From the NCBI GenBank assembly GCA_035506155.1, contig DATJPX010000160.1, forward strand, positions 309 through 64,308: a stretch of 64,000 bases of DNA, written 5' to 3'. The notes beneath the pieces are model-generated. The model was not told the DNA's origin, ran no database searches, and saw only the letters and a list, made by a program, of their open reading frames with translations. The position numbers and the translations under genes were made by a program. Origin of the DNA: Anaerolineales bacterium. GTDB lineage: Bacteria > Chloroflexota > Anaerolineae > Anaerolineales > Villigracilaceae. Positions within the stretch are counted from its first letter, which is position 1, and every line of letters begins with the position of its first letter. Positions 27,064 to 46,459 of the stretch are shown in pieces.

Positions 27064-28116
27064 ATGGACAATCCTTCCTCGCAAACTTCATCCGCCCATT
27101 CCCTGCCCATCCTCGGCGCAGACCTTTCCTCCCTGCCGCGCTCCCTCGACTTGGGAGCCAGGTACTTCGACGAGGCAGGCGCCCCGGCAGATCCGCTGCA
27201 ACTCCTGAAGGATTGGGGCGTCAATTACGTCCGCCTGCGGGTCTGGGTCGATCCCGCCAACGGGGTCAACGACAAGTCGCAGACGATCCGCTTCGCCGAG
27301 ACCGTCAAGGCTCGCGGCATGCGACTGTTGATAGATTTCCACTATTCCGACACCTGGGCCGACCCCGAACACCAGGTCAAGCCGGCGGCCTGGGCCGGGC
27401 ACGATTTCACCCGGCTGCAGAAGGACGTCTACGACCATACGCGGGATGTCTGCTCGAGCCTGGCATCGGCTGGCCTGGCTCCCGACATGGTCCAGATCGG
27501 GAACGAGATCAACCCCGGAATGCTCCTGCCCGACGGGAGCGCCCGGGATTGGGAAAAGCTGTCTGCCCTGCTTAAACAGGGCTACGAGGCAGCCAAAGCC
27601 TGCTCGAGTTCGATCCAGGTGATGCTCCATGTGGCCAACGCCGGCGATTTGGCCGGCACGCGCGCCTGGTACGACGGGGCTACTTCGAAGGGCGTCCTGT
27701 GGGACGTGATGGGATTGTCGTACTATTCCTACTGGCACGGGACCCTGGCTGCAATGCGGGAGACGGTGGCCGATGCGAGGGCGCGCTACCGGCGGCCGGT
27801 CGTGATCGTCGAAACGGCCTATCCCTTCACCCTCTCCGAAAATGACGGCGAAAAGAATTCCATCCACAGCGCCGAACAGCTGTCGCCGAATTTTCCGGCT
27901 ACGCCCGAAGGCCAGGCCGCGAATCTGCAGGCGGTGATCGAGTCCGCCCGCGCCGGCGGGGCGATCGGCGTATTCTATTGGGAACCGACTTGGACGGCGG
28001 TCAAGGGGAACGGCTGGGATCCAACGAACCCGGATTCGGGCGACCAGTGGGAGAACCAGGCCCTGTTCGGTTTCGACGGCAGGGCGCTGCCGGCGATCAG
28101 GAAACTGATCTCCTGA
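27064..28116 (+). CDS. GH53 endo-beta-1,4-galactanase homologue without a signal peptide (predicted cytoplasmic)
   Basis: Trimmed to the ATG at 27064 (MDNPSSQTSS...). VNYVRLRVWVDP, DFHYSDTWADP, QIGNEI, VIVETAYP, FYWEPTW. Confidence 0.8.
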   Translation: MDNPSSQTSSAHSLPILGADLSSLPRSLDLGARYFDEAGAPADPLQLLKDWGVNYVRLRVWVDPANGVNDKSQTIRFAETVKARGMRLLIDFHYSDTWADPEHQVKPAAWAGHDFTRLQKDVYDHTRDVCSSLASAGLAPDMVQIGNEINPGMLLPDGSARDWEKLSALLKQGYEAAKACSSSIQVMLHVANAGDLAGTRAWYDGATSKGVLWDVMGLSYYSYWHGTLAAMRETVADARARYRRPVVIVETAYPFTLSENDGEKNSIHSAEQLSPNFPATPEGQAANLQAVIESARAGGAIGVFYWEPTWTAVKGNGWDPTNPDSGDQWENQALFGFDGRALPAIRKLIS

Positions 28117-28154
28117 CACCTGCTCATCCCAGGGATCATCAGCAGGAGGAAACC

Positions 28155-30539
28155 GTGGAATTCAAGGATTTCCAGCGAGGCCCGGCTGCCAGGAGATTTC
28201 TATGGACGGCTCTCCTGGCTGCCATGCTGCTGACCGCTTCCTGCACCGGACCGGTTCCGTCGTCCACGCCGACTACGAATCGCCTGAACCTGGATTTCAA
28301 TGTGGACTGGAAGTATTCCCAGGGGGACGTTAGCGGTGCAGAGGCCACAGCCTTTAACGATTCCGGGTGGATTTACGTGGACCTTCCGCACTCGACCAAA
28401 TTCGTGACCCCCGAAGACCCGAATGCCTACCTGGGTGTGAGCTGGTACCGGAAACACTTCAGCGTGGACAGCGCCTACCAGGACCGCAAAGTGTATATCG
28501 AGTTCGAAGGAGCCATGCAGTCCGCGGACGTGTGGGTCAACGGCGTCAAGAAGATCCGCCACGTGGGCGGCTATACCCCGTTCACCATCGACGTCACCGG
28601 CGACGTGACCTACGGCGGCGCCGATAACGTCATCGCGGTGAGGCTCGACAGCAATGCCAGCCCGGATTGGGCGCCCGGCTGGAACGGCGTGGATTTCCAA
28701 TATGACGGCGGCCTGTACCGGGACGTCAACATGTACGTGACCGACCGGCTGCACGTCACCGATGCCGTTTATGCCAACAAGGTGGCGGGAGGCGGAGTTT
28801 TCGTCACCTATCCCGAAGTAAGCGCGGCCTCAGCAACCGTCCATATCAAGACGAACGTCCTCAACGAATACCCGGGGGCGAAGACCGCCACCCTTCTCTC
28901 GGAGATCGTCGCCGCGGACGGGCAGGTGGTCGCGTCGGCGGTGACGAGCGCATCGATCGGCGCAGGTGCGGATCACGACTTCACCCAGGATATCACCCTG
29001 GCCCAACCGAAGCTCTGGAGTCCGTACGCGCCCAATCTCTACACCCTGAACAGCATCGTCAAGGACGGGTCGGCAGCCGTGGACGAGGTCTCGACCCGGA
29101 TCGGCATCCGGCGCATCGAGTGGAGTCACGACGGCGGTCTGGTCATCAACGGCAGTCGCTTCAAGGCGCTCGGGGTGGATATGCATCAGGAGATGTACGG
29201 ACTGGGCAATGCCGTTCCGGACCAGTCCATTTACTATGACGTCAAGCGCATCAAGGATGCCGGGTTGAATTTCATCCGCGGCTCGCACTATCCGCACGAC
29301 CCGGCCTTCTACGCCGCCTGCGACGAGCTCGGCATCCTCGTCCTGGATTCCCAGACCGGCTGGCAGCAGTTCAATGACACGACCGCCTTCAAGGACAACA
29401 CGTACCAGGAGCTGCGCGACATGATCCGCCGTGACCGGGATCACCCGAGCGTGGTCGCCTGGGAAGCCAGCCTGAACGAATCCAACTTCACGGATGCCTG
29501 GGCTAAAGCGGCCAACGACATCGTCCACGCAGAATATCCCGGCGACCAGGCTTTCTCGGCCGCCTGGAAGGGACCCTACGCGGACATCTTCATCGACGCC
29601 TCGCAGCATAACGTCCGCAGCACCACCGATCCCCGTCCGATCATCATCGACGAGTACGGCGATTGGGAATACGGCGGCGCCAACTCGACCAGCCGGCAGG
29701 CCCGGGAGGCGGGCGACGCCGCCATGCTGACCCAGGCGAACAACGTCCAGGACGGCGAGGGCAAGAACATGGCCATGCCCTGGTTCACGGCAGACGGCTA
29801 CTGGGATTGGGCGGACTACGGCGGGTTCAGCAACTACGGCATCACCCGGTCGGGCCTCGTCGACATGTACCGCCTGCCCAAGTATTCCTATTATTTCCTG
29901 CAGAGCCAACGAGATCCAGGCGTCATCATCCCCGGGGTAGATTCGGGTCCGATGGTATTCATCGCCAACCAGTGGACGGCGAGCTCGCCGACGACCGTGC
30001 GGGTGTACAGTAACTGCGAACAGGTCGCCCTGTCCCTGAACGGAAAACTGGTCGCCACCCAAAGACCCGACGTCGGAACGAACCTGCTCCACCCGCCATT
30101 CGATTTCAATCTGGGCGGCTACACCCCGGGGACCCTGAAAGCGGATTGCCTGATCGGCGGCAAACCGGAAGCATCCTTCACCCAAAGGACGCCCGGGCAG
30201 GCAGCCGCCATCCGGCTGGTGCCGGAAGCGACCAGGCTGCAGGCCGACTTGAGCGACGCCCGGCTGGTCTTCATCGAAGTCGTCGATGCCAATGGTACGG
30301 TGGTGCCAACGGACAGCAGCCAGGTGAGCTTGAGCCTCACTGGTCCAGGAAGCATCGTCGGACCCATCCTGCTCACCATGAAAGGCGGCGAGCTGGCAAC
30401 CTGGGTCCGGGCGGGCCGCGCCGCCGGGACGATCGTCCTGACGGCCAGCGCTTCCGGCCTGACCCCGGCCACGCTGAAGCTGGTCAGCCAGGCAGTGCCG
30501 AACCTGCCCCCGCCGCCGCCCGATCGCAAGGATAAATAG
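28155..30539 (+). CDS. GH2 beta-galactosidase-like glycoside hydrolase, predicted lipoprotein
   Basis: GTG at 28155 with AGGAGG 5 nt upstream. Signal RRFLWTALLAAMLLTASC. GH2 sugar-binding domain (GVSWYRKHF, YIEFEGAMQSADVWVNG, GGYTPFTIDVT). TIM barrel (NFIRGSHYPHD, AWEASLNES). Confidence 0.8.
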   Translation: MEFKDFQRGPAARRFLWTALLAAMLLTASCTGPVPSSTPTTNRLNLDFNVDWKYSQGDVSGAEATAFNDSGWIYVDLPHSTKFVTPEDPNAYLGVSWYRKHFSVDSAYQDRKVYIEFEGAMQSADVWVNGVKKIRHVGGYTPFTIDVTGDVTYGGADNVIAVRLDSNASPDWAPGWNGVDFQYDGGLYRDVNMYVTDRLHVTDAVYANKVAGGGVFVTYPEVSAASATVHIKTNVLNEYPGAKTATLLSEIVAADGQVVASAVTSASIGAGADHDFTQDITLAQPKLWSPYAPNLYTLNSIVKDGSAAVDEVSTRIGIRRIEWSHDGGLVINGSRFKALGVDMHQEMYGLGNAVPDQSIYYDVKRIKDAGLNFIRGSHYPHDPAFYAACDELGILVLDSQTGWQQFNDTTAFKDNTYQELRDMIRRDRDHPSVVAWEASLNESNFTDAWAKAANDIVHAEYPGDQAFSAAWKGPYADIFIDASQHNVRSTTDPRPIIIDEYGDWEYGGANSTSRQAREAGDAAMLTQANNVQDGEGKNMAMPWFTADGYWDWADYGGFSNYGITRSGLVDMYRLPKYSYYFLQSQRDPGVIIPGVDSGPMVFIANQWTASSPTTVRVYSNCEQVALSLNGKLVATQRPDVGTNLLHPPFDFNLGGYTPGTLKADCLIGGKPEASFTQRTPGQAAAIRLVPEATRLQADLSDARLVFIEVVDANGTVVPTDSSQVSLSLTGPGSIVGPILLTMKGGELATWVRAGRAAGTIVLTASASGLTPATLKLVSQAVPNLPPPPPDRKDK

Positions 30540-30582
30540 ATCTGCTTTTCCAGAGAGGTGCGATTCTTCTTCTCTTTCCTCC

Positions 30583-30615
30583 GAGGAGGCAGGCACGCGA
30601 GGCGCCTGCCTCCTC
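30583..30615. terminator. bidirectional terminator between GH2 (+) and the hybrid regulator (-)
   Basis: 12-bp stem gaggaggcaggc / gcctgcctcctc with a 9-nt loop, then ccctttt. Confidence 0.6.
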
Positions 30616-30624
30616 CCCTTTTAA

Positions 30625-33600
30625 TTAATTTCTTTTTCCGCGCCGGAACGCCCGCGGGGTCACGCCGACCTCCTTCTGGAAGGTACGGGTGAAATGGGCG
30701 CTCTCGGAAAAACCCACTTCGAGGGCCACCTGCATGATCGACAGGTTGGTGGTCTCCAGCAATTCCCGGGCCTGGCGGATCCGGTAGCGGCGCAGATACA
30801 TCATCGGGGTGATATTGAGCTCCTGGCGAAAGCAATCGGTCAGGTAGTCCGCACTGATTCCGATGTGGCGGGCGATGTCCTCCCGGCTGAGCGGCTCGGC
30901 ATACTGGGCATGGATGAAAGCCATGGCCTGCCGGACGAGCTGCTGGGTCGCCCTGCCCAGGGTATGCTGCTTTGCCAGGGCGATTTCGATCAGGTTGAGG
31001 GTCTCGGCCGCGTTGAACAGTCCCTTGCTCAGGATCGCCGCCACCCCCTGGTTGCAGCGCTCCAGGTCGGCCTCGGAGAGCATCTTGGCGGTCAGGACGA
31101 TGACCGGGAGGTTGCGGGTTTCAGCCTTCAAGCGCAGGGCGTCCAAGACGGCGAACCCGTCCATCACCGGCATCATCAGGTCGAGCAGGATCAGGTCCGG
31201 GCGGACCCGCCCGATCGCGGTCATGGCTTCCTGCCCATTGCGGGCCGTCATGACCTGGCAGCCGATCTGTTTCACCAGGCGGCTGTGCAGGTCGAGGATG
31301 CCCGGGTCGTCGTCCACGACCAGCACCGTGCGCTGGCCAGGCCCGGGCTCCACATACCGGGCCAGTTCCTCGGATAGCTGTTCGAGGCGCAGCGGCTTGT
31401 GGAGGTAATTCAGCTCCAGGAGTTCCCCCTGATCGCGCTCGACATCCAGGGAATAGACCAGGACCGGGACGTGCTCGGTGGGCGGCTGCCGCTTGAGCAT
31501 CCCCAGGATCGTCCAGCCTTCGCGTTCGGCCAGGCGGTTGCCCAGGACCAGGGCGGCGGGCGGGGAAGTGACCAACTCGGGCATCCATTCGATGTCCCCG
31601 TCCACCAGGTAGGCCCGCACGTCGAAACCGCGCATCCGCAGGTGGGCGCATAGCTGTTCGGCCGGATCGGAGTGTTCGGTCAGTACCACCACCGTGCTGC
31701 TCTGGGGAACCAGGGAGGCGATCAGGCCGGCCTGCGGCGAAACGGCCGATTCGATCGGCAGGGTGAAGAAAAACGTGGTGCCGGCCCCCAGGTCCCCGGG
31801 CGAGCGGATGCCGATCGTGCCGCCGTGCTGCTCGACCAGCTGCTTGGAGATCACCAGGCCCAGGCCCAGGCCGCCGTATCCCGACTGGACCGCCCGCTCC
31901 GTCCGATGGAACTCGTGGAAGATCTTGTCCAGCTCCCCGGGCGGGATGCCGATCCCCGTGTCGCTGACCGAAATGGTCGCCTGCTTATCCTGGATGGAGA
32001 CGTCCAGGCGGACCTGGCCGGTTGGGGTGAATTTTATGGCGTTGCTGATCAGGTTGAGCGTGACCTGGCGCAGGCGGGTCCGGTCGCCGATGATCCAGGG
32101 TCCCTGCCTGGGAAGCTCGGCCTGCCAGGTGAGACCCCTGTCACGGGCCAGTTGCTCGCCGATCTTGACCGCCACCTGCAGGACCTCGCTCAGGTCGAGG
32201 GGTTCCCGCAGGATCCGCAGCTGGCCCGCCTCGCTGCTGGCCAGGTCGAGGACGTCGCCGATCAGGCGGGCCAGGTGCTGGGCGCTGGTGTGGATCTGCT
32301 CGATGTCGCGCAGCGCGGTCCCGGACGGCTCGGACTGCTCCCGCAGGACCATCTCGCTCAGGCCGACGATCAGGCTGAGGGGCGTGCGCAGCTCGTGGCT
32401 CACCATCGACAGGAAGCGACTCTTCAGGCGGTTGGCCTCCTCGGCCAGCTTGCGGCCCTCGAGGGCATCCCGGTAGAGCTGGCTGGAGCGCAGCGCCGAA
32501 GCCAGGTTGTGGACGATGGCGGCGCACGGTTCGAGGTTGGTGGCGCTCATCGCCACGAACCCGGTCGTGTTCTCGTCGATGATCAACGGCAGGAGGACTA
32601 GCTGGAAGGCCTTGTCGGCGGGGTACTGGCCGGGAGGCGGAAACTCCCGGGTCGTGAAGCGTGTCCCGGCCGTATTTTCAGGCAAGCCAACGTCGAAGAG
32701 GATCCTTCCCTCGGCCAGCGGGTCATCCTCCTTCGAAGAATAGAGGGCCACCAGGGCATGCGGGATGCCCAGCTGCGGTAAGTGTTCGGCCAGGATATTC
32801 GCAGTGGACGGCAGGTCGAGGGCAGACAGCAATTGCGAGGTCATCAATCCGAGCCGGTTGGTCGTTTCCATGTGGCGCAGGAGGACGTCTGTGGCCTGAC
32901 GCTGGGCCAACTCGGCAATGACGATGCGGGCCCGGTCCACCAACGCGTCGGCGAAGTTCTCGTCGGACCTGGCGACGGTCGAGCGCAAGGCCGGCAATCC
33001 GCCCCGCAGGACCGAAAATGCAGTATGCCAGGCATAGGCATCCTCCTCGTGCAATTCGGTCCAGGTAAAGATGTGCTGCAATTCGGCATCGAACCGCTTC
33101 GGATCGCGCCGCGACAGACTTTCCTGAAAAGTATTGACGATGTTCAGGCAGAGGTTCTCCACCTCCGCGTATGGGCTGTGGCGGATTTCCAGGTAGGCAG
33201 CATCGGCCATCGAGTGGGCCAGTAGACCCGGGGCGGCATCCCGACTCGAGGCCGCCGAGGGGAGCGGCGGCGCAGCGGCCACGTTCTCCGGGCGGCAACC
33301 GCAGGATTGGCGGATGACCAAACGGGTGGGGACGCGCCGGCCGCTTTCAGTCTGGCCCTTCCCTTCGATCGCATCCAGGACCGACAGGACCGCCTGGTAG
33401 CCGAGGGTGAAGGTCGGGTGGCGGACGGTCGTCAGGATGGGAAGCTGCGAGCGCGCCTCCAGGATGTCGTCGAAGCCGATCACCGCCACATCCTCCGGGA
33501 TGCGCCGGCCGGACGCCCGCAACACCTCCATTGCCCCGATCCCCGAAAGGTCGTTGCTGGCAATGAGGGCGGAAAACGGCGCGCCGGCCTCGAGGATCGC

Positions 33601-34227
33601 CTGCATGGCGATCCGCCCATCCTCCCGGCGGTGCTCGCCGAAAGCAACCAGGCGCTCGTCCTCCGGGAGTCCCGCCTCATGGAGCGCCTCCCGGTAAGCC
33701 GCCAGCCGCTCGGCGCTGTCGCCGCCGCGGCCTTTCTTCCCAGCGATGAAGGCAATGCGTTTGTGTCCGTGATAGAGGAGGTGTTCGAACGCCTGACGGA
33801 TCCCGTTCGCGTTGTCCACGGCGACCAGTGGACCGGGTTTCTCGGCGGTCGTCAGGATGATCGGATACCCGGCGCGGATCAAATCCTGCACGTACTGGAA
33901 TTGTGCGTCCGAGAGGTCGTCGGGAATAATGATCAGGCCGTCGGCATTCCATGGCCCGACCGGCAAGAAGTCCATGCCTGCCCCGGGGACGGCCCAGGCG
34001 GTCCGGCTGGCGCGCGGGCTGCCCGGCAGCGAAACTCCGCAGCCGATCAGGAGATTGCAATCTTGCTCGAACGCTGCCGCCCGGACCCCTTGCATGAGGG
34101 CGTGGGTGTAATTGTCGATCGTGGTCCCTTCATAGACGGACCAGGTGGAGAGAAAACCGATCGTTGGGCGTTTGTCGCTGGGGCGCATATACGATGGCGG
34201 GGAGAGGAAAAAGCCGGCTGCGTTCAA
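30625..34227 (-). CDS. TM-less hybrid regulator: LacI-type PBP sugar-binding domain, GAF-like, HisKA, HATPase, pseudo-REC, REC, AraC HTH
   Basis: 1200 aa. IGFLS...ASNDLSGIGAMEVLRASGRRIPEDVAVIGFDD (PBP1). SMVSHELRTPL (H-box). DTGIGIP/GGLGLGL (N/G boxes). VLVVDDD...LILLDLMMPVMDG...VLTAK (REC). C-terminal LSIMQVALEVGFSESAHFTRTFQKEVGVTP (AraC). Start is uncertain: TTG at 34227 or ATG at 34188. Confidence 0.85.
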   Translation of the reverse strand: MNAAGFFLSPPSYMRPSDKRPTIGFLSTWSVYEGTTIDNYTHALMQGVRAAAFEQDCNLLIGCGVSLPGSPRASRTAWAVPGAGMDFLPVGPWNADGLIIIPDDLSDAQFQYVQDLIRAGYPIILTTAEKPGPLVAVDNANGIRQAFEHLLYHGHKRIAFIAGKKGRGGDSAERLAAYREALHEAGLPEDERLVAFGEHRREDGRIAMQAILEAGAPFSALIASNDLSGIGAMEVLRASGRRIPEDVAVIGFDDILEARSQLPILTTVRHPTFTLGYQAVLSVLDAIEGKGQTESGRRVPTRLVIRQSCGCRPENVAAAPPLPSAASSRDAAPGLLAHSMADAAYLEIRHSPYAEVENLCLNIVNTFQESLSRRDPKRFDAELQHIFTWTELHEEDAYAWHTAFSVLRGGLPALRSTVARSDENFADALVDRARIVIAELAQRQATDVLLRHMETTNRLGLMTSQLLSALDLPSTANILAEHLPQLGIPHALVALYSSKEDDPLAEGRILFDVGLPENTAGTRFTTREFPPPGQYPADKAFQLVLLPLIIDENTTGFVAMSATNLEPCAAIVHNLASALRSSQLYRDALEGRKLAEEANRLKSRFLSMVSHELRTPLSLIVGLSEMVLREQSEPSGTALRDIEQIHTSAQHLARLIGDVLDLASSEAGQLRILREPLDLSEVLQVAVKIGEQLARDRGLTWQAELPRQGPWIIGDRTRLRQVTLNLISNAIKFTPTGQVRLDVSIQDKQATISVSDTGIGIPPGELDKIFHEFHRTERAVQSGYGGLGLGLVISKQLVEQHGGTIGIRSPGDLGAGTTFFFTLPIESAVSPQAGLIASLVPQSSTVVVLTEHSDPAEQLCAHLRMRGFDVRAYLVDGDIEWMPELVTSPPAALVLGNRLAEREGWTILGMLKRQPPTEHVPVLVYSLDVERDQGELLELNYLHKPLRLEQLSEELARYVEPGPGQRTVLVVDDDPGILDLHSRLVKQIGCQVMTARNGQEAMTAIGRVRPDLILLDLMMPVMDGFAVLDALRLKAETRNLPVIVLTAKMLSEADLERCNQGVAAILSKGLFNAAETLNLIEIALAKQHTLGRATQQLVRQAMAFIHAQYAEPLSREDIARHIGISADYLTDCFRQELNITPMMYLRRYRIRQARELLETTNLSIMQVALEVGFSESAHFTRTFQKEVGVTPRAFRRGKRN

Positions 34228-34335: not shown

Positions 34336-34599
34336 CTAGTGCAGGATCTCCTGGTTGGCCCGATCGGCCTCCTGGAGGATCTGGCTGACCTCCTCTTTCA
34401 TCTCGGGGGTGGCGCTCGGGGTTTTGGGGATGTATTTCACCAGGTCGCGGGCATCCTGCAGGAGCGCCTTGACCCGGGCGATGTAGGAGAAATTATGTTT
34501 GCCACCCTCGGCAGCCTCCGGGACGGGATAGTCGCGGGCTTCCTGGATCAGGGCATGGGCTTTTTTGATCCGATCGACGGCCAGAATCAAGCGGGACAT
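34336..34599 (-). CDS. 87-aa helical hypothetical protein
   Basis: Trimmed to the ATG at 34599 with AGGAG upstream. MSRLILAVDRIKKAHALIQEARDY... Last gene on this strand after thrC. Confidence 0.5.
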   Translation of the reverse strand: MSRLILAVDRIKKAHALIQEARDYPVPEAAEGGKHNFSYIARVKALLQDARDLVKYIPKTPSATPEMKEEVSQILQEADRANQEILH

Positions 34600-34684
34600 G
34601 AAGGCTCCTGTGAGAGAAAGGCGGGTCACGCCGATCGGCGTGACCCGTAAAGTTTAACCCATTTTGTGGAGGAATTGCAGAAAT

Positions 34685-35899
34685 CTAGGCCAGCGCATCC
34701 AGGTATTTCAGCCCCGACCCGGTGTTGAACAGGACAATGCGCTCGTCCGGCCGGACCCACTTCTGCTTGACCAGCTTTTCCAACCCGGCCAGGGTGGCGG
34801 CGCCCTCGGGGGCGGGGAAAATCCCTTCGTGGGCGCTCAGGTCCCGCCCGGCTGCCAGGATGGCCTCGTCGCTGACGGCCACAGCCGTCCCCTGGCTTTC
34901 GCGCAAGTCCGCCAGGATGAGGGCGTCGGCAAAGCTCTTCGGGACGCGCAGCCCGGAAGCCAGCGTGTGGGCGTTCGTCCAGAAATCGCAGAACTGGGCG
35001 CCGCTCTCGAAAGCCTTGACCACCGGGGCGCAGCCCTCGGCCTGCACGACGACCATGCGCGGCCGGCGGGTGTCCTTCAGCCAGCCGAGCGCTTCCATCT
35101 CGGCGAAGGCCTTCCACATCCCGACCAGTCCGGTGCCGCCGCCGGTCGGGTAGACGATCACGTCGGGCAGGGACCAGTCGAAGGCTTCGGCCAGCTCGTA
35201 GCCCATGATCTTCTTGCCCTCCACGCGGTAAGGCTCCTTGAACGTGGACAGGTCGAACCAGCCTTCCTCGCGGGCCTTGATGCCGGCCATGCCGGCCGCG
35301 TCGCTGATGATCCCGTCGACCAGGATCACGTCCGCCCCGGCCATGCGGCTTTCGTCGATGTTGGCGCGCGGGGTGTCCTTGGGCATATAAATGGCGGCGC
35401 GGATGTTCGCCCGGGCGGCATAGGCAGCCATCGCCCCGCCGGCGTTCCCGGCGGTCGGGATGATGACCTTGTCGATGCCCAATTCCTTGGCCTTCGATAC
35501 GGCCGCGGCCAGGCCGCGCGCCTTGAACGAGCCGGTCGGATTGGTGCTCTCATCCTTGACGTACAGGTTGGACAGCCCGAGTTTGGCGCCGATGTGCGGG
35601 ACCGGCAGCAGAGCCGTATCCCCTTCCCCCAGGTAGACGAAGTTTTGCGGATCCCGGACCGGGAGCAACTCATGCCAGCGCCACATCCCGTGCAGCCGCT
35701 GGCGGATGGTCGCCCGATCCACATGCGCCTGCACGGCTTTCAGATCGTAGCGCGCCAGCAGGGGCGATTGACAATCGGGGCAATAAGTATGAATCTGATC
35801 GGCTGCGAATTTCGCGCCGCAGCCGGAACATTCTAATTCGGTAAGGTAGGAGGTGGCCGCAGAGCCCGTTGCCTCATCTGCCATAAAGTTGGATGGCAT
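34685..35899 (-). CDS. thrC: threonine synthase (short, Zn-ribbon-containing ThrC type)
   Basis: 404 aa. N-terminal CSGC...CPDC. PLP-Lys motif NPTGSFKARG. PTAGNAG. GGGTG-type phosphate loop (YPTGGGTGLVG). Confidence 0.8.
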   Translation of the reverse strand: MPSNFMADEATGSAATSYLTELECSGCGAKFAADQIHTYCPDCQSPLLARYDLKAVQAHVDRATIRQRLHGMWRWHELLPVRDPQNFVYLGEGDTALLPVPHIGAKLGLSNLYVKDESTNPTGSFKARGLAAAVSKAKELGIDKVIIPTAGNAGGAMAAYAARANIRAAIYMPKDTPRANIDESRMAGADVILVDGIISDAAGMAGIKAREEGWFDLSTFKEPYRVEGKKIMGYELAEAFDWSLPDVIVYPTGGGTGLVGMWKAFAEMEALGWLKDTRRPRMVVVQAEGCAPVVKAFESGAQFCDFWTNAHTLASGLRVPKSFADALILADLRESQGTAVAVSDEAILAAGRDLSAHEGIFPAPEGAATLAGLEKLVKQKWVRPDERIVLFNTGSGLKYLDALA

Positions 35900-35947
35900 G
35901 CTATTCCTTCTTCACTCAACCATTATAACCAATTTGGATATACCAGC

Positions 35948-36328
35948 TTAGTGGGATGAGACGACGAAACCTTCCACACGGGCCCACAGCTCGCGGATGT
36001 TGATCGGCTTGGACATGTACACGTCACAGCCTGCATCCAGGGCCTTTTCGGCGTCGCCTTTCAGGGCATTCGCCGTGATGGCAATGATCGGGACATAGGC
36101 CAACTCGACCTTGGTGCTCTTGCGCAGGCGACGGGCCACTTCATACCCGTCGATGTCGGGCAGGTTGATATCCAGCAGGACTAGGTCCACGTCCTGCGCT
36201 TCCGCCATGGCCAGGCCCCGGGTGCCATTCTCGGCTTCCAGCAGATGGTACCCGCGCGATTCAAGCACACGCTTGACCAGCAGCATGTTATCCGGATTAT
36301 CTTCGATGTATAAAATATTTTTTCCCAT
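35948..36328 (-). CDS. single-domain response regulator (CheY-like)
   Basis: 126 aa. ILYIEDN, LVLLDINLPDIDG, IIAITAN, YMSKP. Confidence 0.9.
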   Translation of the reverse strand: MGKNILYIEDNPDNMLLVKRVLESRGYHLLEAENGTRGLAMAEAQDVDLVLLDINLPDIDGYEVARRLRKSTKVELAYVPIIAITANALKGDAEKALDAGCDVYMSKPINIRELWARVEGFVVSSH

Positions 36329-36331
36329 GAA

Positions 36332-37984
36332 TTATTTCCCTTGTTCCGTATTCTTGTCTTCGAGCACCTGGATGACCTGGTCGACGAACTTGCGCGGCGG
36401 CAGGGAGCCTTTTTGGTAGACCGCTTCGATATGTCCGTTCAGGCGCTTTCTTTCCTCCGGGGTGATGTCCTTGGCGCTGACGACCACGATCGGGACGTCC
36501 CGGGTGCGCGGGTCGAGGCGCAGTTCCTCCACCAGGCCGAAGCCGTCGATGCCCGGCATCATCAGGTCGGTGACGATCAGGTCGGGCAGCTTCTGCCGGG
36601 CCATGGCCAGCCCCTCCCAGCCGTCCCGGGCGTGGAACAGGCGGTAGGCCTTGCGGCTCTCCAGCAGGCGCTGGATCAGCAGGGCGTCGTCGGCGTTGTC
36701 GTCGATCAACAGGATGGTGGTGGTCTTCTCGTCCAGGTTCTCGAGGGCGGCCTGCAGGCCTTCACGCGGCGCAGGCGCCTGGGTCTCGCTCAGGTGCACG
36801 TCCACGGCGAACTGGTCGCCGACGACGTGCTTCTCGGTCGGGAAGGTATGCCCGGTGCAGTTGACCACGACCTTCTCGCCCTCGCCGATCTGGCCGGTGC
36901 GGACGAGCTTCTCCAGCCCGGCAAAGGCCACAGCCGCGGCCGGTTCGACCGCCATGCCTTCGCTGTGCGCCAGGGTGCGCATGGCCGAGAACGCTTCGGC
37001 GTCCGAGACCGCTTCCATCACCCCGCCGTACTGCTGGTACAGCTTCCACAAATAAGTGTAGACCTTGCCCGGGTCGCCGGTGGACAGGACGATGATACGC
37101 GTGTCCGGCACCACCGCCTCGGCGGTTTCCCGCCCGGCCCGGAATGCCTCGACCATCGGCGCACAGCCTTCCGCCTGGATGACAGCCAGCTTGGGGATGC
37201 GGTCGATCAGGCCCATCGCCTGCAATTCTCGGAAGCCCTGGAACACGCCCAGGGGGCCCAGCCCGCCGCTGACCGACTGGATGTACCAGTCCGGGGCGGT
37301 CCAGCCGAGCTGCTCGACGATTTCGTAGGCGATGGTCTTCATCGACTCGCGCGCCGGGACGGAGCCCGCGCCGCGGTCCAGCAGCAGGTTGCGGCGTTTG
37401 GCGAACTGGGCGGCGATCTGCTTGGTCTGGTCGTAGTTGCCGCTGACCCGGATCACCTCGGCGCCGAAGAGGGCCGCCTCGCGCAGCTTTTCCTGCGGGA
37501 CCAGGCTGGTCATGAAGACCCACAGCTTGATCCCGGCCCGGGCGCAGGCCGCCGCGTACGCCACGGCGGCGTTCCCGGTGGAGGCGATCACGGCTTCGCG
37601 CACGCCGCCCTCCAGCATGGCCGCCACGGCCACGGCGGCCTGGCGGTCCTTGAAGGAGCTGGTCGGACCGTAGCGCTCGTCCTTGATGTAGACCTGGGCC
37701 AGCCCGAGCGAAGGCCCGTAGCGCTGCGACAGCCACAGCGGAGTCCCGCCGGCCGGATACAGGTCCAGATGGGAGGGGTCGTCCAGGGGCAGCACGTCCT
37801 GGTAGCGCCACAGGTTGGACGGGCGCCCGGGCAGGCCGCGCAGGATCTCACGCTTGAACTCGGCGTACTCGTAGCGGCCTTCCAGCCAGCTCGAGCCGCA
37901 CCCGGCGCACACGGCCGGAGTGAACGGTTCGTAAGGCTGCTGTTTTCCGCAGACGATGCACTCGAGATACTTCGGTCGGGTCAT
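36332..37984 (-). CDS. threonine-synthase-like PLP enzyme fused to a C-terminal response-regulator receiver domain
   Basis: 550 aa. CIVC...CAGC Zn ribbon, GPTSSFKDRQ (PLP Lys, about K112), ASTGNAA, SVSGGLGPLG. Then REC at aa 421-540 (DNA 36365-36724): ILLIDDN, LIVTDLMMPGIDG, VVVSAK, YQKG. Confidence 0.85.
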   Translation of the reverse strand: MTRPKYLECIVCGKQQPYEPFTPAVCAGCGSSWLEGRYEYAEFKREILRGLPGRPSNLWRYQDVLPLDDPSHLDLYPAGGTPLWLSQRYGPSLGLAQVYIKDERYGPTSSFKDRQAAVAVAAMLEGGVREAVIASTGNAAVAYAAACARAGIKLWVFMTSLVPQEKLREAALFGAEVIRVSGNYDQTKQIAAQFAKRRNLLLDRGAGSVPARESMKTIAYEIVEQLGWTAPDWYIQSVSGGLGPLGVFQGFRELQAMGLIDRIPKLAVIQAEGCAPMVEAFRAGRETAEAVVPDTRIIVLSTGDPGKVYTYLWKLYQQYGGVMEAVSDAEAFSAMRTLAHSEGMAVEPAAAVAFAGLEKLVRTGQIGEGEKVVVNCTGHTFPTEKHVVGDQFAVDVHLSETQAPAPREGLQAALENLDEKTTTILLIDDNADDALLIQRLLESRKAYRLFHARDGWEGLAMARQKLPDLIVTDLMMPGIDGFGLVEELRLDPRTRDVPIVVVSAKDITPEERKRLNGHIEAVYQKGSLPPRKFVDQVIQVLEDKNTEQGK

Positions 37985-37985: not shown

Positions 37986-39860
37986 TTATTTCTGCTGTTT
38001 CTCCGCCGGTTCGGTCAGCTTGGCTTCGAGCGGCAGTTCGACGAACAGGGTCGTGCCTTCCCCGGCGACGCCGGTGGATTCGGCCCACATGCGGCCGCCG
38101 TGCATTTCGACCAGCTTGCGGCTGATCGGCAAGCCCAGGCCGGTGCCGCCCGCCTTGCGGGTGGTCGAGGAGTCGACCTGGACGAATTCCTGGAAGATGG
38201 TTTCCAGTTCGCTGGGCGGGATGCCCACGCCGGTATCGCGCACGACGATCAGGGCGTTCTCGTCCCGCCGGTCGACGCGGATTCGGATCTTGCCCTTCTC
38301 GGTGAATTTGATGGCGTTATTGATCACGTTGATCATCACCTGGCGCAGGCGCGTCCGGTCGGCGTATATTTCGACGTTCTTGTCAGAATTCTTTTCGATC
38401 GTGAGGGTGAGCTTCTTCTCGCCCGCCAACGGCGAGGTGATGTTGACGACCTCGTCGAAGATCTCCTGGACCTTGAAGCGCTCCGGGCTCAGGTTCATCC
38501 GGCCGGCGGTGATCTTGGCCATGTCGAGCACGTCGTTGATCAGGTGCAGCAGGTGCTGGCCATTCTTCTGGATCAGGCGCAGGTCGTTGGACATGTTCTC
38601 GGTCAGCGGGCCGTCCAGTTCCTCCAGCATCACGTCGGCGAAGCCCAGGATGGAGTTCAGCGGGGTGCGCAGTTCATGGCTCATGTTGGCCAGGAAGGCG
38701 GATTTGAGCCGGTCCAGTTCCTGCAATTCGGCGGCACGTTTGCGCAGTTCATCGTTCAGGCGCAGGGTCTCGAGGTGGATGCTGGCCTGGGCGGCAATCG
38801 AGGCGGCCAGACTGGCGGCCTCCGGCGGGAGCTTGTCCGCGCCGGCGATGACCAGTTGCCCGATCGTCTCGCCGTTGACCAGCAGCGGCTGGGTCAGGTC
38901 GGCTTCTTCGATCCCGGCGGGGTCTTCCGTCGGCACGACCTGGTTGGAGTCGTAGACAAAACCGAGTGGTTTCTCTTCCTCTTGTTCGGCGGCGAACTCC
39001 TGCCAGCTTTCACGCGTCATGCGCCGGGTCAGGTCTTCTGCTTCGGCGCGGGCGCGTGAGGCGTCGGAGAGCAGGCGCAGGTTCTCGACCTGTTGGGAGA
39101 TCTGGCGGGCCACCGCAGCGATCAATTCGCGCTCGTCGTCCGTCAGGGGATGGTCCGGATCGGCCTTCAGGTAGAGGGCGCCGATCTGCTCTTCCATCAC
39201 GTCCAGCGGCACTTCGTAGCCGGAATTGGCGGGGAGCTTGTTGGTAAAAGGCGTCAGGGCATCCTTGTCGTAGGCAAAGCCGACGCGCTCGTGCTGGTGG
39301 ATGGCATCGAGATAGGACTCCCAACCTTCGTGGATGAACTGCCGGGTGGCGGATTCGGCCTCGGCGCGGGCGCGCTCAGTGGCGGCCAGCAGGCGCAGGT
39401 TCTGGATCTGCAGCGAGGCCTGCTGGGCCACGTTCTGCGCCAGGTTCATTTCCTCCGGGTCGAGCGGACGATCGGAGGGCTGTTCGATCTGCAACTCGCC
39501 GATCTCTTCGCCGCTGGCCGTCAGCAGGGCCTTGAGGGCATGGTCCAGTTGGGTCAGGGTTTGGACGGAGCCTTCGACCGGTTCCAATTTGTCCCCGGCG
39601 TAAGCAAAGCCGACCTGGTCGCGTTCGTACAGGGTGGCAGGGCTGGAGACCGCAGCCGGCGCCTCGACCGATGGAGTCTCCGCCCGGGCGGGTTGGCGCT
39701 TTTCGCTTTCCAGGAATTCTGCTTCCAATTCGAGCAGGCGGGCGCGCAGGGCATCCAACTCGGCGCGCACAGGGGGCGTCTTGCCGAGGGTCGATGCGGC
39801 TATTTGCTCGATGTCGCTGAACAGCATCTTCAAACGTTGACGATATCTCTTCGTATCCAT
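37986..39860 (-). CDS. soluble histidine kinase: coiled coil, three tandem half-GAF-like modules, HisKA, HATPase
   Basis: 624 aa, no TM. H-box NMSHELRTPLNSI. N box INNAIKFT. G boxes DTGVGIP and GGTGLGL. Stop lies 1 nt before the ThrC-REC start. Confidence 0.9.
   Translation of the reverse strand: MDTKRYRQRLKMLFSDIEQIAASTLGKTPPVRAELDALRARLLELEAEFLESEKRQPARAETPSVEAPAAVSSPATLYERDQVGFAYAGDKLEPVEGSVQTLTQLDHALKALLTASGEEIGELQIEQPSDRPLDPEEMNLAQNVAQQASLQIQNLRLLAATERARAEAESATRQFIHEGWESYLDAIHQHERVGFAYDKDALTPFTNKLPANSGYEVPLDVMEEQIGALYLKADPDHPLTDDERELIAAVARQISQQVENLRLLSDASRARAEAEDLTRRMTRESWQEFAAEQEEEKPLGFVYDSNQVVPTEDPAGIEEADLTQPLLVNGETIGQLVIAGADKLPPEAASLAASIAAQASIHLETLRLNDELRKRAAELQELDRLKSAFLANMSHELRTPLNSILGFADVMLEELDGPLTENMSNDLRLIQKNGQHLLHLINDVLDMAKITAGRMNLSPERFKVQEIFDEVVNITSPLAGEKKLTLTIEKNSDKNVEIYADRTRLRQVMINVINNAIKFTEKGKIRIRVDRRDENALIVVRDTGVGIPPSELETIFQEFVQVDSSTTRKAGGTGLGLPISRKLVEMHGGRMWAESTGVAGEGTTLFVELPLEAKLTEPAEKQQK
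38706..39623 (-). repeat. three tandem ~300-bp coding repeats (about 95-105 aa modules) inside the kinase gene
   Basis: Modules begin VGFAYAGDKLEP / VGFAYDKDALTP / LGFVYDSNQVVP. They end QNLRLLAATERARAEAE / ENLRLLSDASRARAEAE / ETLRLNDELRKRAAE. DNA-level similarity is visible, e.g. 39040-39140 versus 39352-39455. Confidence 0.75.
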
Positions 39861-39911: not shown

Positions 39912-42900
39912 CTACTTGCCCTTGCCCTTGCCATTCTTCTTGTCTTTGACACCCAACTGCGCGATGGTCAGCGGGGCATTCAGAGCCCGGCCGAGTTCGC
40001 GCGCCGCGATCTGCAGGACGGCCTCCACCGAAGTGGCGGACTGGATCTTCTGGCTGATGGTGTTGAGGGCGGTCTCGCGTTCGGCCTGGCGCTGCGCCAC
40101 GGAGTAGGTACGGGCGTTCTGCAAGGCGACGGCGATCTGGGCCGCCAGGGTGGTCTGGATGCGGATGTCTTCTTCAGTGAAGTGATCGGCCTTGTCGGAC
40201 TGGACGTCGAACACGCCGATCACGTTCCCACCGACGATCATCGGGACGGCCAGTTCGGCACGCGTCTCGGGCAGCAGCGGGTGCGGCAGGAAGTCGGGGT
40301 CGATGCGTACGTTGTTCACGATGACGCCTTCGCGGGAGCGGGCAGCCCGCGCCACCAGCGATTGTTCACGGCTAAGCGGGATCGAGCGGCCTTCGGACAC
40401 CATCTGCTTGCCCACGTCGCCAGCGCCGGCGGAGAGATCCAGGGTATCGCCGGTCTCGTTCAACAGGTAGATATGGGCGTGGTACAGGCCGAAGGATTGT
40501 TTGGTCAGGTCGACCACTTCCTGCAACAGGCGGTCGGTGTCGATGATCGTGGCAGCCGCCGTACTCACGCGGGCCGCCAGTTCCAGCTCGGTGGCGCGCT
40601 TGTCGAGGGCGGCCTCGTCCATTTTGCGTTGGGTGAAGTCCGAAGCGCTGAACAGGAGGCAGTCGTCGTTGTTATAGCGGATCTGATGCACGTAGAGCAG
40701 CACGTAGAAACCGTGGCCGTCGGCATGCTTGGTGTGTAATTCGTAGCCGACCAGGCTGCCACGCGTTTCCAGTTCCTTGAACAGGCGCGGCCGGTCTTCC
40801 GGGTCGAAGTAGAAATCGGGGGTGCGCTTGCCCATCAGGTCCTTTGTGTCGTATCCCAGCAGTTCGCCGAAGGCGGGGTTGGCGTACAGGAGCACACCGT
40901 CGGTCTTGCGGCTGATCGCAATGGAGGTCGGCACGGTCTTCAGGATGGTGTCGAGGCGTTCCTGGCTTTCCTGCACGGCCTGTTCGGCCAGTTTGCGCTC
41001 GGTGATGTCCTGGTTGGCGCCGTAATAGCGGATGATCTTGCCGAACTCATCCCGTTCGATATGAACATTGACGGAGATGTAGCCCACGCCGCCGTCCTTG
41101 TAAATGACCCGGTGTTCCAGCTTGACATTGTAGTGCCGATCGGTGGAGGCGATGGCCACCCCGATCGCCTCGCCGACCAGGTGCACGTCGTCCGGGTGGA
41201 CCAGGCGCTGGGCGTATTGCTCGGAAGACAGCTCGTAGCCGCCCATCTCCTCTGCGGTAGTATGGAAGATCGAATAGAAGTGATCATTGAAGAGGAAGCG
41301 GTCGCGTGCCACGTCGTACTCCCAGTTGGCCAACCGGGCAATGTCGAGCGCCTCGGACAACTGGGCGGCGGCACGCTGGGTCTGTTCGTACTGGCGGATG
41401 TTCAACAGGGCGATGGCGACCTGGCTGGCGATCGACAGGATCAGGTCGGTATCCTGCCCGGTCAGGCTGTTCGAGACGTTGTTCTGCACGTCCAGCACGC
41501 CCAGCACCTGGTCACCGGCCAGGATCGGCACGGCCACTTCCGACTTGGTCTCGGGCAGCAGCGGGTTGGGCAGCCAGTCGGGGTCCTTGCCTGTATCCGG
41601 CACGAGCACCGCCTGCCGGCTTTCAGCGGCGCGACCGACCAGGCCGCGCCCGCGGGCGATCTTGTGGCCGCGTTCCAGCAATGCCTGACCGGCGTCGCCC
41701 GTACCGCCGGCCATAACGAGCTCGCCGGTCGTTTCGTTCAGCAAGTAGATGTGGGCGTGGTAGTACCCAAAGGCGGTCTTGATCTGCTCGACCACCTGGG
41801 AAACCAGTTGGTGTTGGTCGAAGATGGTCGACAGGTGACGGCTGACTTCCGAGGAAGTCTCCAGGGCCTTGGTGCGATCGGCCACGCGCTGTTCCAGGGT
41901 ATCGATCATTTCACGCAACTGGGCGGTCATGGCATTGAACGTCGACGCCACCTGTTGGACTTCGGCAGTACCGGTCACTTCGGCTTTGGCTGTCAGGTTG
42001 CCTCCGGCGATCTCGGTCGCGGCCTTGGACAGCGACACCAGAGGGGCTGACAATCTGCGGGACAAGGGGATGGAGATCAAACCGGCCGCGATCAGCAGAA
42101 CGATGAACGCGATGATACCAAAACCGATCAGGGTGATGATCGACTGGTAGGCTTCCGCCCACGGAGTTTCGACGACCACGGCCCAGTTCGGCGTGGCCAA
42201 GGGAACGTACGTTCCTACAACTCTGATTCCGGTCAAGCCGGTATAAGTGGATACCCCGGGCGTGATATCGGCGGCCGCGGTTGGATTCGCAACGAATTCG
42301 CCCACTTCCCCGATGTTCTTGAGATTCTTGCCCTGTAAAACCAAGCCGGTATCCCGGTAGGCGAGTAAGTTCCCTTTACTATCGACCACGTAAATGTAGC
42401 CGGCTTTGCCCACCTTGAATTGATCGACCAAATCCCGCATGAACTTCAGGTTGATCTCAGCCACCAGAGTCCCTTGAACATCACCTAAATCGTCCTTTAC
42501 CGGAATGGCGACACTGATCAAAGGTTCGCTGGTCGTATCATCGGTGTAGAGGGCGCCAAAATATTCCTGGCCCTTGGCTGTCTGGGTCAGTGCGTCGCCC
42601 TTCAGTTGTGCTTGGAATTGCGCCGACAGGCTCGAAGAAAAGCGCGAAACCTGGGATACGACCTGTCCACGGCTATCCAACAAGGCAAATTGCCGGAAGG
42701 CTGTATCGACCCCCAGCAAACTCTCCACGAAGGTCCTCTGGGTATCCGGATCGGCAGCGATCGGGTTGGTCATAGACACGGCAGTCTGCATGCGGGCGAC
42801 CCGTTCTAGGATGAAGTTGCTGACCGAGGTGCCGGCCTCGCGAGCCGTGGCATCCTGCTGCGAAGTCAAGGCAGCCTGCTGAGTGCGCACTCCCTCGATG

Positions 42901-43013
42901 AGGAATATGTTCCCGGTGATCAACAAGGCGACAGAAGCCACAAGGATGAGCATCTGGGCAAGTGTTTGTGCAAGGGTACGTGGCATTCGTGGCCGTTTTG
43001 CTGGAGTTTTCAT
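39912..43013 (-). CDS. membrane sensor without transmitter: TM, Cache-like extracytoplasmic domain, TM, HAMP, GAF, PAS, PAS, GAF
   Basis: 1033 aa. TM1 [21 protein letters not shown]2 [47 protein letters not shown]. Two paralogous GAFs ([22 protein letters not shown] and [22 protein letters not shown]). Ends in [11 protein letters not shown] with no H-box or ATPase motifs. Confidence 0.8.
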
Positions 43014-43083: not shown

Positions 43084-44097
43084 CTAGTGGAGCACATTAT
43101 CCGCTTGCTTGATCAAGCCTTCAGGCACCGTAACGCCCAGGGCTTGGGCAGCCTTCAGGTTGATCTGGAAATAACTTTCGGAGGTCAGGACCGGGACGGA
43201 GCCAACTGGCGTTCCCTTGAAGATCTTGTCAGCCTGGGTAGCCGCATCCGCGCCCACGATCTCGGGCTTCGGCAGCAAGCCGAAGAGGGAGGCATGTCCA
43301 TCCGGCTCCATAATGGCGCCGCCAATCGGAATCCGGTGGGCATAACAGAAATTGCCCAGGAGCGAGTAAAAATCGGGCGTAATGCCCAACGGTTCCACCA
43401 GCATCAGGACGGCATCGAAGCCGACACCATCCGAGGTGGTCAATTGATCGAGCTCATTCTGGAGATCCTGGGGAGCGGTTGCAGGGAATTCGATCAACTG
43501 CACTCCCGCCGCCTGGGCCTGCGGGCGGATGGCGTCCAGCTGGCCGGGCACGTTCGGATATCCCTTGAGATAGGGTGCGAAGACGCGTTTCGCGTTGGGA
43601 GCCATCTGAAGCAGGACCTGCAGGCGCTTGCTAGCCGTGTCGGCGCTGCCCCAGCGTACACCGGTGATATTCCCACCCGGCTTCTGGACACTGTCGATCA
43701 AGTTAACGCCGGGGACATCCGTGAATGCCAGGGCAAAGACCACCGGGATGTTCGTGCCTTTGGTGTCGGCTTTGGCTTCCATGGCGGCTTCCGTCGGGAA
43801 GGCCAGGATGAGGTCCACTTTTTCGCTCACGAACTTTCCGATGGCTGCTTTATAGGCTGCGGTATCGACGTTGGTCGACTGCACATCGTAAGTGATATTC
43901 TTGCCTTCAACATAGCCCAGGCTGGTCATCTTGGCTTTAAAACCGTCGACGATACCGCTGAAAGCATCCAAACCCGACAGGATACCCACATGGTAGACCT
44001 TCGTCGGCTGGGTACCGCACCCGCCCAAGGGCAGGACGACCAGGACGATCAGAACGAGGACCATCAACCCCTTTTGAACTAATCCCTTATTGAACAT
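43084..44097 (-). CDS. ABC_sub_bind (PF04392-like) substrate-binding lipoprotein, orphan
   Basis: 337 aa. Lipobox LPLGGC. VGILSGLDAFSGIVDGFKAKMTSLGYVEGKNITYD...DLILAFPTEAAMEAK...PVVF...PGGNITGV. Confidence 0.75.
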   Translation of the reverse strand: MFNKGLVQKGLMVLVLIVLVVLPLGGCGTQPTKVYHVGILSGLDAFSGIVDGFKAKMTSLGYVEGKNITYDVQSTNVDTAAYKAAIGKFVSEKVDLILAFPTEAAMEAKADTKGTNIPVVFALAFTDVPGVNLIDSVQKPGGNITGVRWGSADTASKRLQVLLQMAPNAKRVFAPYLKGYPNVPGQLDAIRPQAQAAGVQLIEFPATAPQDLQNELDQLTTSDGVGFDAVLMLVEPLGITPDFYSLLGNFCYAHRIPIGGAIMEPDGHASLFGLLPKPEIVGADAATQADKIFKGTPVGSVPVLTSESYFQINLKAAQALGVTVPEGLIKQADNVLH

Positions 44098-44177
44098 GCT
44101 CTACTCCTTCCTTTCCATTTCTTACGTTGAACGATTGATTCGCCAGGTAAATTCACAGATATGGCCGGATGGTCGTT

Positions 44178-46456: not shown

Positions 46457-46459
46457 CCG

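Follow-up and report, generated by a model that had tools for sequence, protein, structure and literature searches.

The window analysed here, a stretch of 64,000 nt on contig DATJPX010000160.1 of assembly GCA_035506155.1 from an Anaerolineales bacterium (Villigracilaceae), contains on its minus strand a closely packed string of genes, which runs from position 43013 down to 34685 and encodes in this order a sensor, a histidine kinase, a fusion protein, a CheY-like protein and a threonine synthase (ThrC). The fusion protein combines a ThrC-like pyridoxal phosphate (PLP) enzyme domain of fold type II (PALP) with a receiver domain (REC) at its C-terminus, and is named PALP-REC in the following. 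The string comprises these genes and ends with a hairpin:

39912..43013, minus strand: membrane sensor without kinase core, 1033 aa, organised as transmembrane segment-dCache-transmembrane segment-HAMP-GAF-PAS-PAS-GAF (Pfam dCache_1, HAMP, two GAF, PAS)
37986..39860, minus strand: soluble histidine kinase, 624 aa, with HisKA (H-box SHELRTP) and HATPase_c (Pfam)
36332..37984, minus strand: PALP-REC fusion, 550 aa, with zinc ribbon, ThrC-like fold-type-II PLP domain, linker of ~30 aa and receiver
35948..36328, minus strand: CheY-like single-domain receiver, 126 aa (Pfam Response_reg, 96 bits)
34685..35899, minus strand: stand-alone threonine synthase of the zinc-ribbon type, 404 aa (PRK08197, 569.9 bits; Pfam PALP)
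34622..34647, minus strand: terminator-like hairpin with an 11-bp stem including 9 G-C pairs, 38 nt past the ThrC stop

The first-pass annotation had described the open reading frame (ORF) at 36332-37984 as one 550-aa protein of a PALP and a receiver domain, and coordinates and Pfam search agree with this: PALP (PF00291) matches residues 78-378 with 241.2 bits (gathering cut-off 35, E 2e-71) and Response_reg (PF00072) residues 424-515 with 57.9 bits (cut-off 30.2, E 1.4e-15), and all motifs quoted there, from the zinc-ribbon Cys to YQKG, are present in the translation. Conservation was assessed in an alignment of 242 fused proteins that was reduced to 46 sequences at 80% identity (alignment A1). 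Furthermore, an AlphaFold2 (AF2) monomer model was built with a 101-sequence alignment, in which both domains are confident with a mean predicted local distance difference test score (pLDDT) of 81. Within the protein the following parts can be distinguished:

37898..37960, minus strand: four-Cys zinc ribbon (C9, C12, C26, C29), each Cys kept in 44-45/46
36851..37753, minus strand: PALP domain, residues 78-378 (Pfam PALP)
36728..36814, minus strand: inter-domain linker, residues 391-419, flexible according to AF2 (pLDDT <50)
36335..36724, minus strand: receiver, residues 421-550 (Pfam Response_reg; AF2 fold)

The four Cys of the ribbon are common to the fused proteins and to ThrC of the zinc-ribbon type. 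The Lys that is predicted to form the Schiff base, K112 (codon 37649-37651), lies in the SSFKDR motif, and K112, D113, R114 and Q115 occur in every aligned sequence (45/46, with one gap), so that the expected Lys is borne out by a proper alignment. The motifs S135-T136-G137-N138 (STGNAA), E213-S-M-K-T217 and T/S377-G378 are conserved as well (44-46/46), with position 377 being T or S in 46/46 and T in the window fusion, and the PLP-phosphate loop S239-G240-G241-x-G243, reading SGGLGPLG in the window, is kept in 45-46/46. The roles of K112, of the Gly-rich loop and of T377, which presumably faces the ring nitrogen N1 of PLP, are assigned by alignment with ThrC structures. The receiver contains the motifs LLIDDN, LIVTDLMMPGIDG (with D473), VVSAK (with S503) and YQKG (with K525). 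D428/D429 are predicted by sequence to form its acidic pocket and D473 (codon 36566-36568) to be the phospho-acceptor, and the catalytic positions are kept throughout (D429 in 44/46, D473 in 46/46, T/S503 in 45/46 and K525 in 45/46). In the AF2 model residues 423-549 adopt the canonical (beta-alpha)5 fold, in which five strands alternate with five helices, with a pLDDT of ~80-92. Moreover, the linker carries the motif P406-x-E-G409-L410-x-x-A413-L, of which P406 is invariant and G409, L410 and A413 are kept in at least 90% of the same aligned sequences. Because this motif is conserved despite the predicted flexibility, the linker is a candidate element for coupling the PLP domain to the receiver.

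The distribution of the architecture was followed in a database of 5.8 billion proteins grouped into 90%-identity clusters and, separately, in genomes sampled once per GTDB species. In the protein database at least 120 different clusters match at 81-100% identity, all of them with PF00291 and PF00072, 540-564 aa in length and derived from metagenome-assembled genomes (MAGs) of Anaerolineales/Chloroflexota. Searches seeded with two rare unfused relatives mainly returned more fused proteins (at least 105 and at least 100 fused clusters, respectively), including a large clade of ~548-aa fused proteins from Aggregatilineales and Anaerolineae as well as members from Thermoflexus, and overall the fused architecture is present in at least 300 independent 90%-identity clusters. 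Full-length matches were found in the genomes of ~35 species, at 78-83% and 67% identity in Anaerolineales and at 45-50% in Caldilineaceae and other Anaerolineae, and fused representatives reach as low as 43% identity. In the NCBI taxonomy they span the three Chloroflexota classes Anaerolineae, Caldilineae and Thermoflexia, with no full-length match beyond Chloroflexota among the best 80 genome loci, and clustering at 50% (1.84 billion sequences) gives only about seven fused representatives. The fused family is deep yet phylogenetically confined. As it comprises at least 300 clusters and ~35 species genomes with identities down to 43%, the fusion is real and under selection.

A frequent variant of about 695-715 aa has the form PALP-REC-REC (P0122, P0123 and L090 7001-9091). 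The idea that its extra receiver derives from the downstream CheY by gene fusion, which would have been a Rosetta-stone link, was rejected: this receiver resembles the fusion's own receiver (40%) more than it resembles CheY, and it thus goes back to a tandem duplication of the first. The locus L090 encodes a separate CheY downstream of its PALP-REC-REC. Unfused relatives are rare (P0129, P0132, P0299, P0390) and the subfamily is almost wholly fused. An attempt to infer the chemistry from the surroundings of P0129, P0299 and P0390 was fruitless, since their gene contexts are unrelated and non-repeating. P0390 (L089 1664-5610) has on one side a CysH-type 3'-phosphoadenosine 5'-phosphosulfate reductase, an enzyme that yields sulfite (NF002537, 160 bits with a cut-off of 154), and on the other an aspartate kinase, a context that in this single locus hints at an ancestral enzyme of a sulfur (cysteate-synthase-like) or aspartate pathway. 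Besides these, three ThrC-type PALP enzymes of ~611-620 aa (P0188, P0204, P0251) carry a C-terminal allosteric LeuA_dimer domain, which is apparently another, undescribed regulatory fusion on the ThrC scaffold.

With respect to the kind of PLP enzyme, the closest solved structures by sequence are the ThrCs 2ZSJ, 1UIM and 2D1F (E about 1e-42), and the nearest folds found with Foldseek are the ThrCs 2d1f, 2zsj, 3aey and 6nmx (target template modelling score 0.80-0.83, 30-33% identity). The fusion thus resembles ThrC (EC 4.2.3.1) in the fold, the four-Cys ribbon, the Lys of SFKDR, the motifs S-T-G-N and E-x-x-K-T, the Gly-rich loop and the C-terminal T/S-G. It differs from ThrC in its C-terminal receiver, in a poorly conserved canonical Arg and in belonging to a separate subfamily with a signature of its own, and on the NCBIfam ThrC model PRK08197 it scores 248.7 bits, which is under the cut-off of 303. 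In a distance-based neighbour-joining tree of 92 PALP modules (100 bootstraps), the fused set together with a few unfused sisters is split with 99/100 from a ThrC side that holds the neighbouring ThrC of the window as well as the ThrCs of Thermus, Aquifex and M. tuberculosis; the fused proteins alone form a clade in only 45-58/100 bootstraps. The signature of the fused family is KDERxGPTxSFKDRQA, LDRG, ESMKT, VSGGxGPxG and SGHTFPxE. At several positions where at least 85% of the sequences on the ThrC side agree (numbering of Thermus ThrC), the fused proteins carry family-wide replacements, namely N55 by G, A72 by M, G187 by S, A238 by I, G320 by T and the Lys of the C-terminal GLK motif by P. 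In addition, G64 is replaced by Q (FKDRQA), T88 by A and N188 by G, and the N154/S155 region reads DRG. The R160 equivalent in the fusion is residue 212, and across the 46 aligned proteins this position is occupied by V (23), M (7), R (6), K (5) or I (5); R or K near it is confined to the window subclade and to Caldilineales, shifted by one residue. In the Thermus enzyme (structure 1V7C), T88, N154, S155, R160 and N188 reportedly bind the phosphate of O-phosphohomoserine, with R160 as the main ligand. The bona fide ThrC next to the fusion likewise has A at the T88 position and G at the N188 position, and therefore only the Arg and the N154/S155 region are informative. Given this presumed role of the Arg, the score under the PRK08197 cut-off and the loss of the R160 equivalent make true threonine synthesis doubtful. 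An anion could instead be bound by the conserved R204 of the DRG motif, so that a phospho-ester substrate is possible. A ThrC-derived paralogue that serves a new substrate is also represented by cysteate synthase (TIGR03844; CapA2), which can be aligned with the fusion over 429 columns of the N-terminal region and the PALP core. However, the fusion is only 24% identical to CapA2 (PDB 9K3C) and reaches 127.1 bits on TIGR03844 with a cut-off of 324.9. Judged by these sequence comparisons, the PLP domain of the fusion is a ThrC-derived paralogue of a distinct subfamily, and true ThrC activity is unlikely.

The gene is always found among two-component genes in the loci examined, and within the Anaerolineales, the order to which the window belongs, kinase-fusion-CheY is the invariant core. 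In most Anaerolineales loci a kinase homologue is located directly 5' of the fusion, and in almost all of them a CheY with 75-82% identity follows directly downstream. In the more distant clades (10 loci), PALP-REC is preceded by a giant hybrid kinase with dCache, HAMP and a GAF array, which is sometimes split, and is followed by a REC-HisKA-HATPase protein in 6/10 loci and by a stand-alone CheY in L090. The best matches of the window CheY, at 40-45%, are the REC domains of these downstream REC-kinases (L028, L082, L085-L088), and by sequence it can be regarded as orthologous to them. A two-gene unit of PALP-REC followed by REC(-kinase) is therefore ancestral to the family. Furthermore, a transporter gene of the drug/metabolite transporter type (EamA) is adjacent to the module in 7/10 distant loci. 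Pairwise identity among the EamA genes of the four of the seven loci that were compared is 43-51% and matches the divergence of their PALP-REC partners, so that EamA has travelled with the module. Curated models name it merely a "carboxylate/amino acid/amine transporter". In most lineages outside the order of the window, this co-inheritance suggests that a substrate or product crosses the membrane.

In the window itself, the gene junctions were read directly from the sequence and agree with the distances given before: the kinase and the fusion are separated by 1 nt (TAA-T-ATG) and the fusion and CheY by 3 nt (TAA-TTC-ATG). The soluble kinase (37986-39860) matches HisKA with 72 bits and HATPase_c with 108 bits; it is regarded as soluble because a scan of the protein for hydrophobic segments found none. 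Its N-terminal half (residues ~80-370) consists of three repeats of ~100 aa, each with a '(V/L)GF(A/V)YD' motif and at its end a C-terminal fragment of GAF ('...IGxL...NLRLL'), whereby the Pfam matches to GAF are only partial. The sensor (39912-43013) has hydrophobic segments at residues 13-42 and 286-322, on either side of dCache, and its homologues are located 5' of the kinase in six other loci (L007, L019, L021, L022, L024, L027); it is likely the input partner of the downstream soluble kinase. Sensor and kinase are two genes in the window, with 51 nt between them. In distant relatives the sensor and kinase domains are found in one polypeptide of 2441 aa (L084 529-7854) or 1866 aa (L034 2769-8369), and the window thus appears to hold a split sensor kinase.

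The relation of the fusion to the ThrC gene downstream is less close than it seems from their neighbourhood. That a conventional stand-alone ThrC is encoded next door is confirmed by its scores, which are far above the PRK08197 cut-off and 177.4 bits on TIGR00260. The first-pass annotation had further suggested a duplication followed by neofunctionalisation, and this is not supported: a recent tandem duplication of the neighbouring thrC was rejected, as the two PALP modules are only 31-33% identical, lie on opposite sides of the 99/100 split and are adjacent only patchily. A ThrC of this type follows CheY in ~14/30 Anaerolineales loci and in 0/10 distant loci, and where thrC is missing the genes past CheY are variable, with no second conserved partner. 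This patchy adjacency is an order-level, lineage-specific synteny and not a conserved functional link; ThrC is a neighbour and not a conserved part of the module. The proposed common operon with ThrC is plausible but not secure. Between the TAA of CheY and the ATG of ThrC there are 48 nt (35900-35947, minus strand) with a ribosome-binding site GAAGGA and a perfect TATAAT ~22 nt before the ThrC start. Because of this TATAAT, ThrC may be transcribed from a putative promoter of its own besides read-through. The transcription unit probably ends at the hairpin at 34647-34622. The range of 34336-37984 assigned earlier covers real genes, but it also includes a 97-aa ORF (34336-34629), which was rejected as a gene of the module: its start overlaps the hairpin, it has no match in Pfam or NCBIfam and it is absent from 35/35 related loci, and it is probably not a gene of the PALP-REC module. 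Scans with Rfam and for tRNAs found no RNA element within or beside the module.

Taken these data as a basis, it can be assumed with moderate confidence that PALP-REC is a response regulator with a PLP enzyme of a distinct ThrC-related subfamily as effector. Next to the architecture, residue conservation, phylogenetic placement, gene context and taxonomic spread, which are observed, we infer the phosphorylation partners, the direction and sign of the control and the chemistry as follows. The GAF-rich upstream kinase, which appears in the window to be split into the membrane dCache sensor and the soluble kinase, would phosphorylate D473 of the C-terminal receiver, and this would alter the activity of the N-terminal PLP domain, either by dimerisation of the receiver acting on the presumably dimeric PLP enzyme or through the conserved linker motif, which would dock and be released. 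The downstream CheY-like receiver, or the REC-kinase in other clades, may share, relay or drain the phosphoryl flux. The substrate would probably be an amino acid that undergoes beta/gamma-elimination or replacement, and housekeeping threonine synthesis is probably not the reaction. The 1-nt and 3-nt gaps that tie the kinase, fusion and CheY genes together argue for this proposal, and given the fusion inside a two-component operon the PLP and receiver modules are probably coupled. The domain is probably not a housekeeping ThrC, because such an enzyme is encoded next door, the PRK08197 score stays under its cut-off, the tree separates the two with 99/100 and the R160 equivalent is mostly V, M or I. 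Several points weigh against a response regulator with a PLP-enzyme output. A C-terminal receiver is unusual for effector-type response regulators and typical of hybrid kinases and CheV-like modulators. The AF2 monomer model has no fixed packing of PALP and receiver (linker pLDDT <50, predicted template modelling score 0.66), and with no inter-domain contact in the model no allosteric path is visible. GabR/MocR regulators retain the PLP Lys in a sensor role, so that conservation of the Lys is no proof of catalysis. On the model TIGR00260 (thrC) the fusion barely reaches the cut-off (167.6 versus 167.1) and P0129, an unfused protein nested in the family, passes PRK08197 (305.5 versus 303), and therefore ThrC activity of the fusion is still possible; in the window subclade R212 adjoins the position of the canonical Arg. 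Finally, tblastn detected no EamA gene close to the module, either in the window or elsewhere in the Anaerolineales.

The same observations can be read differently. It is possible, although rather unlikely, that the PLP domain is an input. It would then bind a ligand of the amino-acid type as external aldimine, turn it over hardly or not at all, and govern via the linker whether the receiver takes up, keeps or hands on phosphoryl groups; among several kinases, the protein would serve as a node gated by a metabolite or as a phosphate sink. The arrangement with the other domain N-terminal and the receiver C-terminal, as in CheV or hybrid kinases, fits this explanation, and so do the PALP-REC-REC variants, the position of the fusion in distant clades between a receiver-bearing hybrid kinase and a REC-kinase, which is like that of a relay or branch point, the loss of the canonical ThrC Arg, which we take to bind the substrate phosphate, in most members and the precedent of GabR/MocR, in which a PLP domain with intact Lys acts as sensor. 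However, every PLP-binding and general acid-base position that the fused family has in common with active ThrC is strictly kept across ~50% divergence, while pseudo-enzyme sensors often relax some of them. Also, no Hpt domain was seen in any locus, so that a receiver-to-receiver relay would have no obvious carrier, and the co-inherited transporter suits a metabolic enzyme at least equally well.

That the fusion is a genuine threonine synthase isozyme, which is switched by the two-component system beside a constitutive ThrC, seems quite improbable to us. Its closest solved structures and hidden Markov models are all ThrC, the TIGR00260 cut-off is reached, its distance to the solved ThrCs is like that of the neighbouring ThrC (149 versus 162 bits), R212 of the window subclade lies beside the canonical Arg position, thrC adjoins the module in about half of the close relatives and one unfused relative is found near an aspartate kinase gene. 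The PRK08197 score, the separate subfamily with its bootstrap of 99/100, the family-wide replacement of several ThrC-conserved columns, the V/M/I of most members at the R160 equivalent, and the distant clades, in which EamA instead of thrC is linked, speak against such an isozyme. An artefact of assembly or a frameshift by which a receiver gene of its own was fused with one for a ThrC-like protein, which the first-pass annotation had named among the outcomes that would refute its claim, was checked and excluded, and its probability is negligible. No support for it was found, apart from the rare unfused P0129, P0132 and P0390, which show that the PLP module can stand alone. It is effectively refuted by the recurrence of the same uninterrupted ORF in hundreds of assemblies from various projects and assemblers, in several cases on contigs of 1.5-3.7 Mb and at identities down to 43-50%, and by the linker, which itself bears a conserved motif.

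PALP-REC as a response regulator with an enzymatic output has likenesses to several known systems. As in the methylesterase CheB, the GGDEF proteins PleD/WspR, the HD-GYP protein RpfG and the PglZ protein PorX, a receiver is joined to an enzyme and a kinase gene adjoins, and like in these enzymatic response regulators all catalytic residues of the receiver are intact. In contrast, the effector of the fusion is a fold-type-II PLP enzyme, and the receiver, which is N-terminal in CheB, PleD/WspR, RpfG and PorX, is C-terminal. Among fold-type-II PLP enzymes, IlvA has C-terminal ACT-like domains, cystathionine beta-synthase has a C-terminal Bateman module, and plant ThrC is activated by S-adenosylmethionine. 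The fusion shares with IlvA and cystathionine beta-synthase the regulatory module C-terminal to the PALP core, a theme that returns in ThrC-type enzymes with PALP and LeuA_dimer such as P0188. However, those enzymes and plant ThrC respond to a bound metabolite, whereas the fusion would respond to phosphorylation by a kinase, and no inter-domain interface is predicted for it by AF2. With CheV (CheW-REC) and the hybrid kinases it has in common that the receiver is C-terminal to another domain and that several kinases and receivers are present in the system, but the fusion polypeptide has neither a CheW nor a kinase domain and no chemotaxis genes are nearby. GabR/MocR regulators consist of a fold-type-I PLP domain and a DNA-binding domain, whereas the fusion has a fold-type-II domain and a receiver; what they would have in common is that a PLP domain that keeps its Lys is attached to a module for signalling or regulation.

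Around the module the window contains further genes. Upstream on the same strand (43084-49150, minus), more signalling genes continue the array: a GAF-GAF-histidine kinase (46460-49150, minus), an OmpR-type regulator (45659-46456, minus), a REC-REC-GAF protein (44178-45524, minus) and a lipoprotein-like binding protein of the ABC_sub_bind family (PF04392; 43084-44097, minus). Homologues of the latter two are also located upstream in L019 and L027. On the other side, 30625-34227 (minus) encodes a 1200-aa polypeptide with a LacI-type periplasmic-binding-protein domain, HisKA, HATPase, a receiver and an AraC helix-turn-helix, which is the architecture of a hybrid two-component system. Beside it, at 23332-30539, there are GH53 and GH2 glycosidases, a solute-binding protein and ATP-binding cassette permeases, and the region 23332-34227 looks like a galactan-type sugar utilisation locus. 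An 891-aa ORF at 53370-56045 (minus) has no Pfam match at E<=1e-5 and overlaps a 597-aa ORF on the opposite strand. The G+C content is 0.47 at 2001-4000 compared to ~0.6 across the remaining window.

Full-text literature searches found no description of a protein combining a PLP enzyme and a receiver, in agreement with the first-pass annotation, which knew of no described ThrC/PALP output of a response regulator. The architecture as such is common in databases. However, the hundreds of entries bear only the automatic names "threonine synthase" or "pyridoxal-phosphate dependent enzyme", and it is therefore not functionally annotated there. PALP-REC can be classed in one of two ways: as a response regulator whose enzymatic output is of a new class, or as a PLP enzyme whose regulatory domain is of a new kind. 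Only a few response regulators are known to have an enzyme as output, and each of them has opened a field, such as chemotaxis adaptation or cyclic di-GMP signalling. The fusion would also be, to our knowledge, the first fold-type-II PLP enzyme that is regulated by a receiver; the known ones use metabolite-binding domains. The fused proteins are soluble and small and thus open to direct testing, and the find would surprise specialists of both signalling and PLP enzymes. With a PLP-enzyme output, a sensor kinase would control amino-acid chemistry directly and post-translationally. Going one step further, we tentatively put forward, as an unlikely but attractive extension, that filamentous Chloroflexota possess a two-component pathway that directly switches a dedicated PLP enzyme for the synthesis or breakdown of a non-proteinogenic amino-acid-type metabolite, which the co-inherited EamA moves across the membrane. 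This would be a phosphorylation-gated "signal synthase" or metabolite valve, and a class of response-regulator output not recognised before, with small-molecule metabolism as its target and no transcription involved. The large family is conserved in three classes of the Chloroflexota, a little-studied phylum abundant in wastewater, sediments and soils, and its wholesale mis-annotation as "threonine synthase" distorts the metabolic reconstructions of Chloroflexota MAGs.

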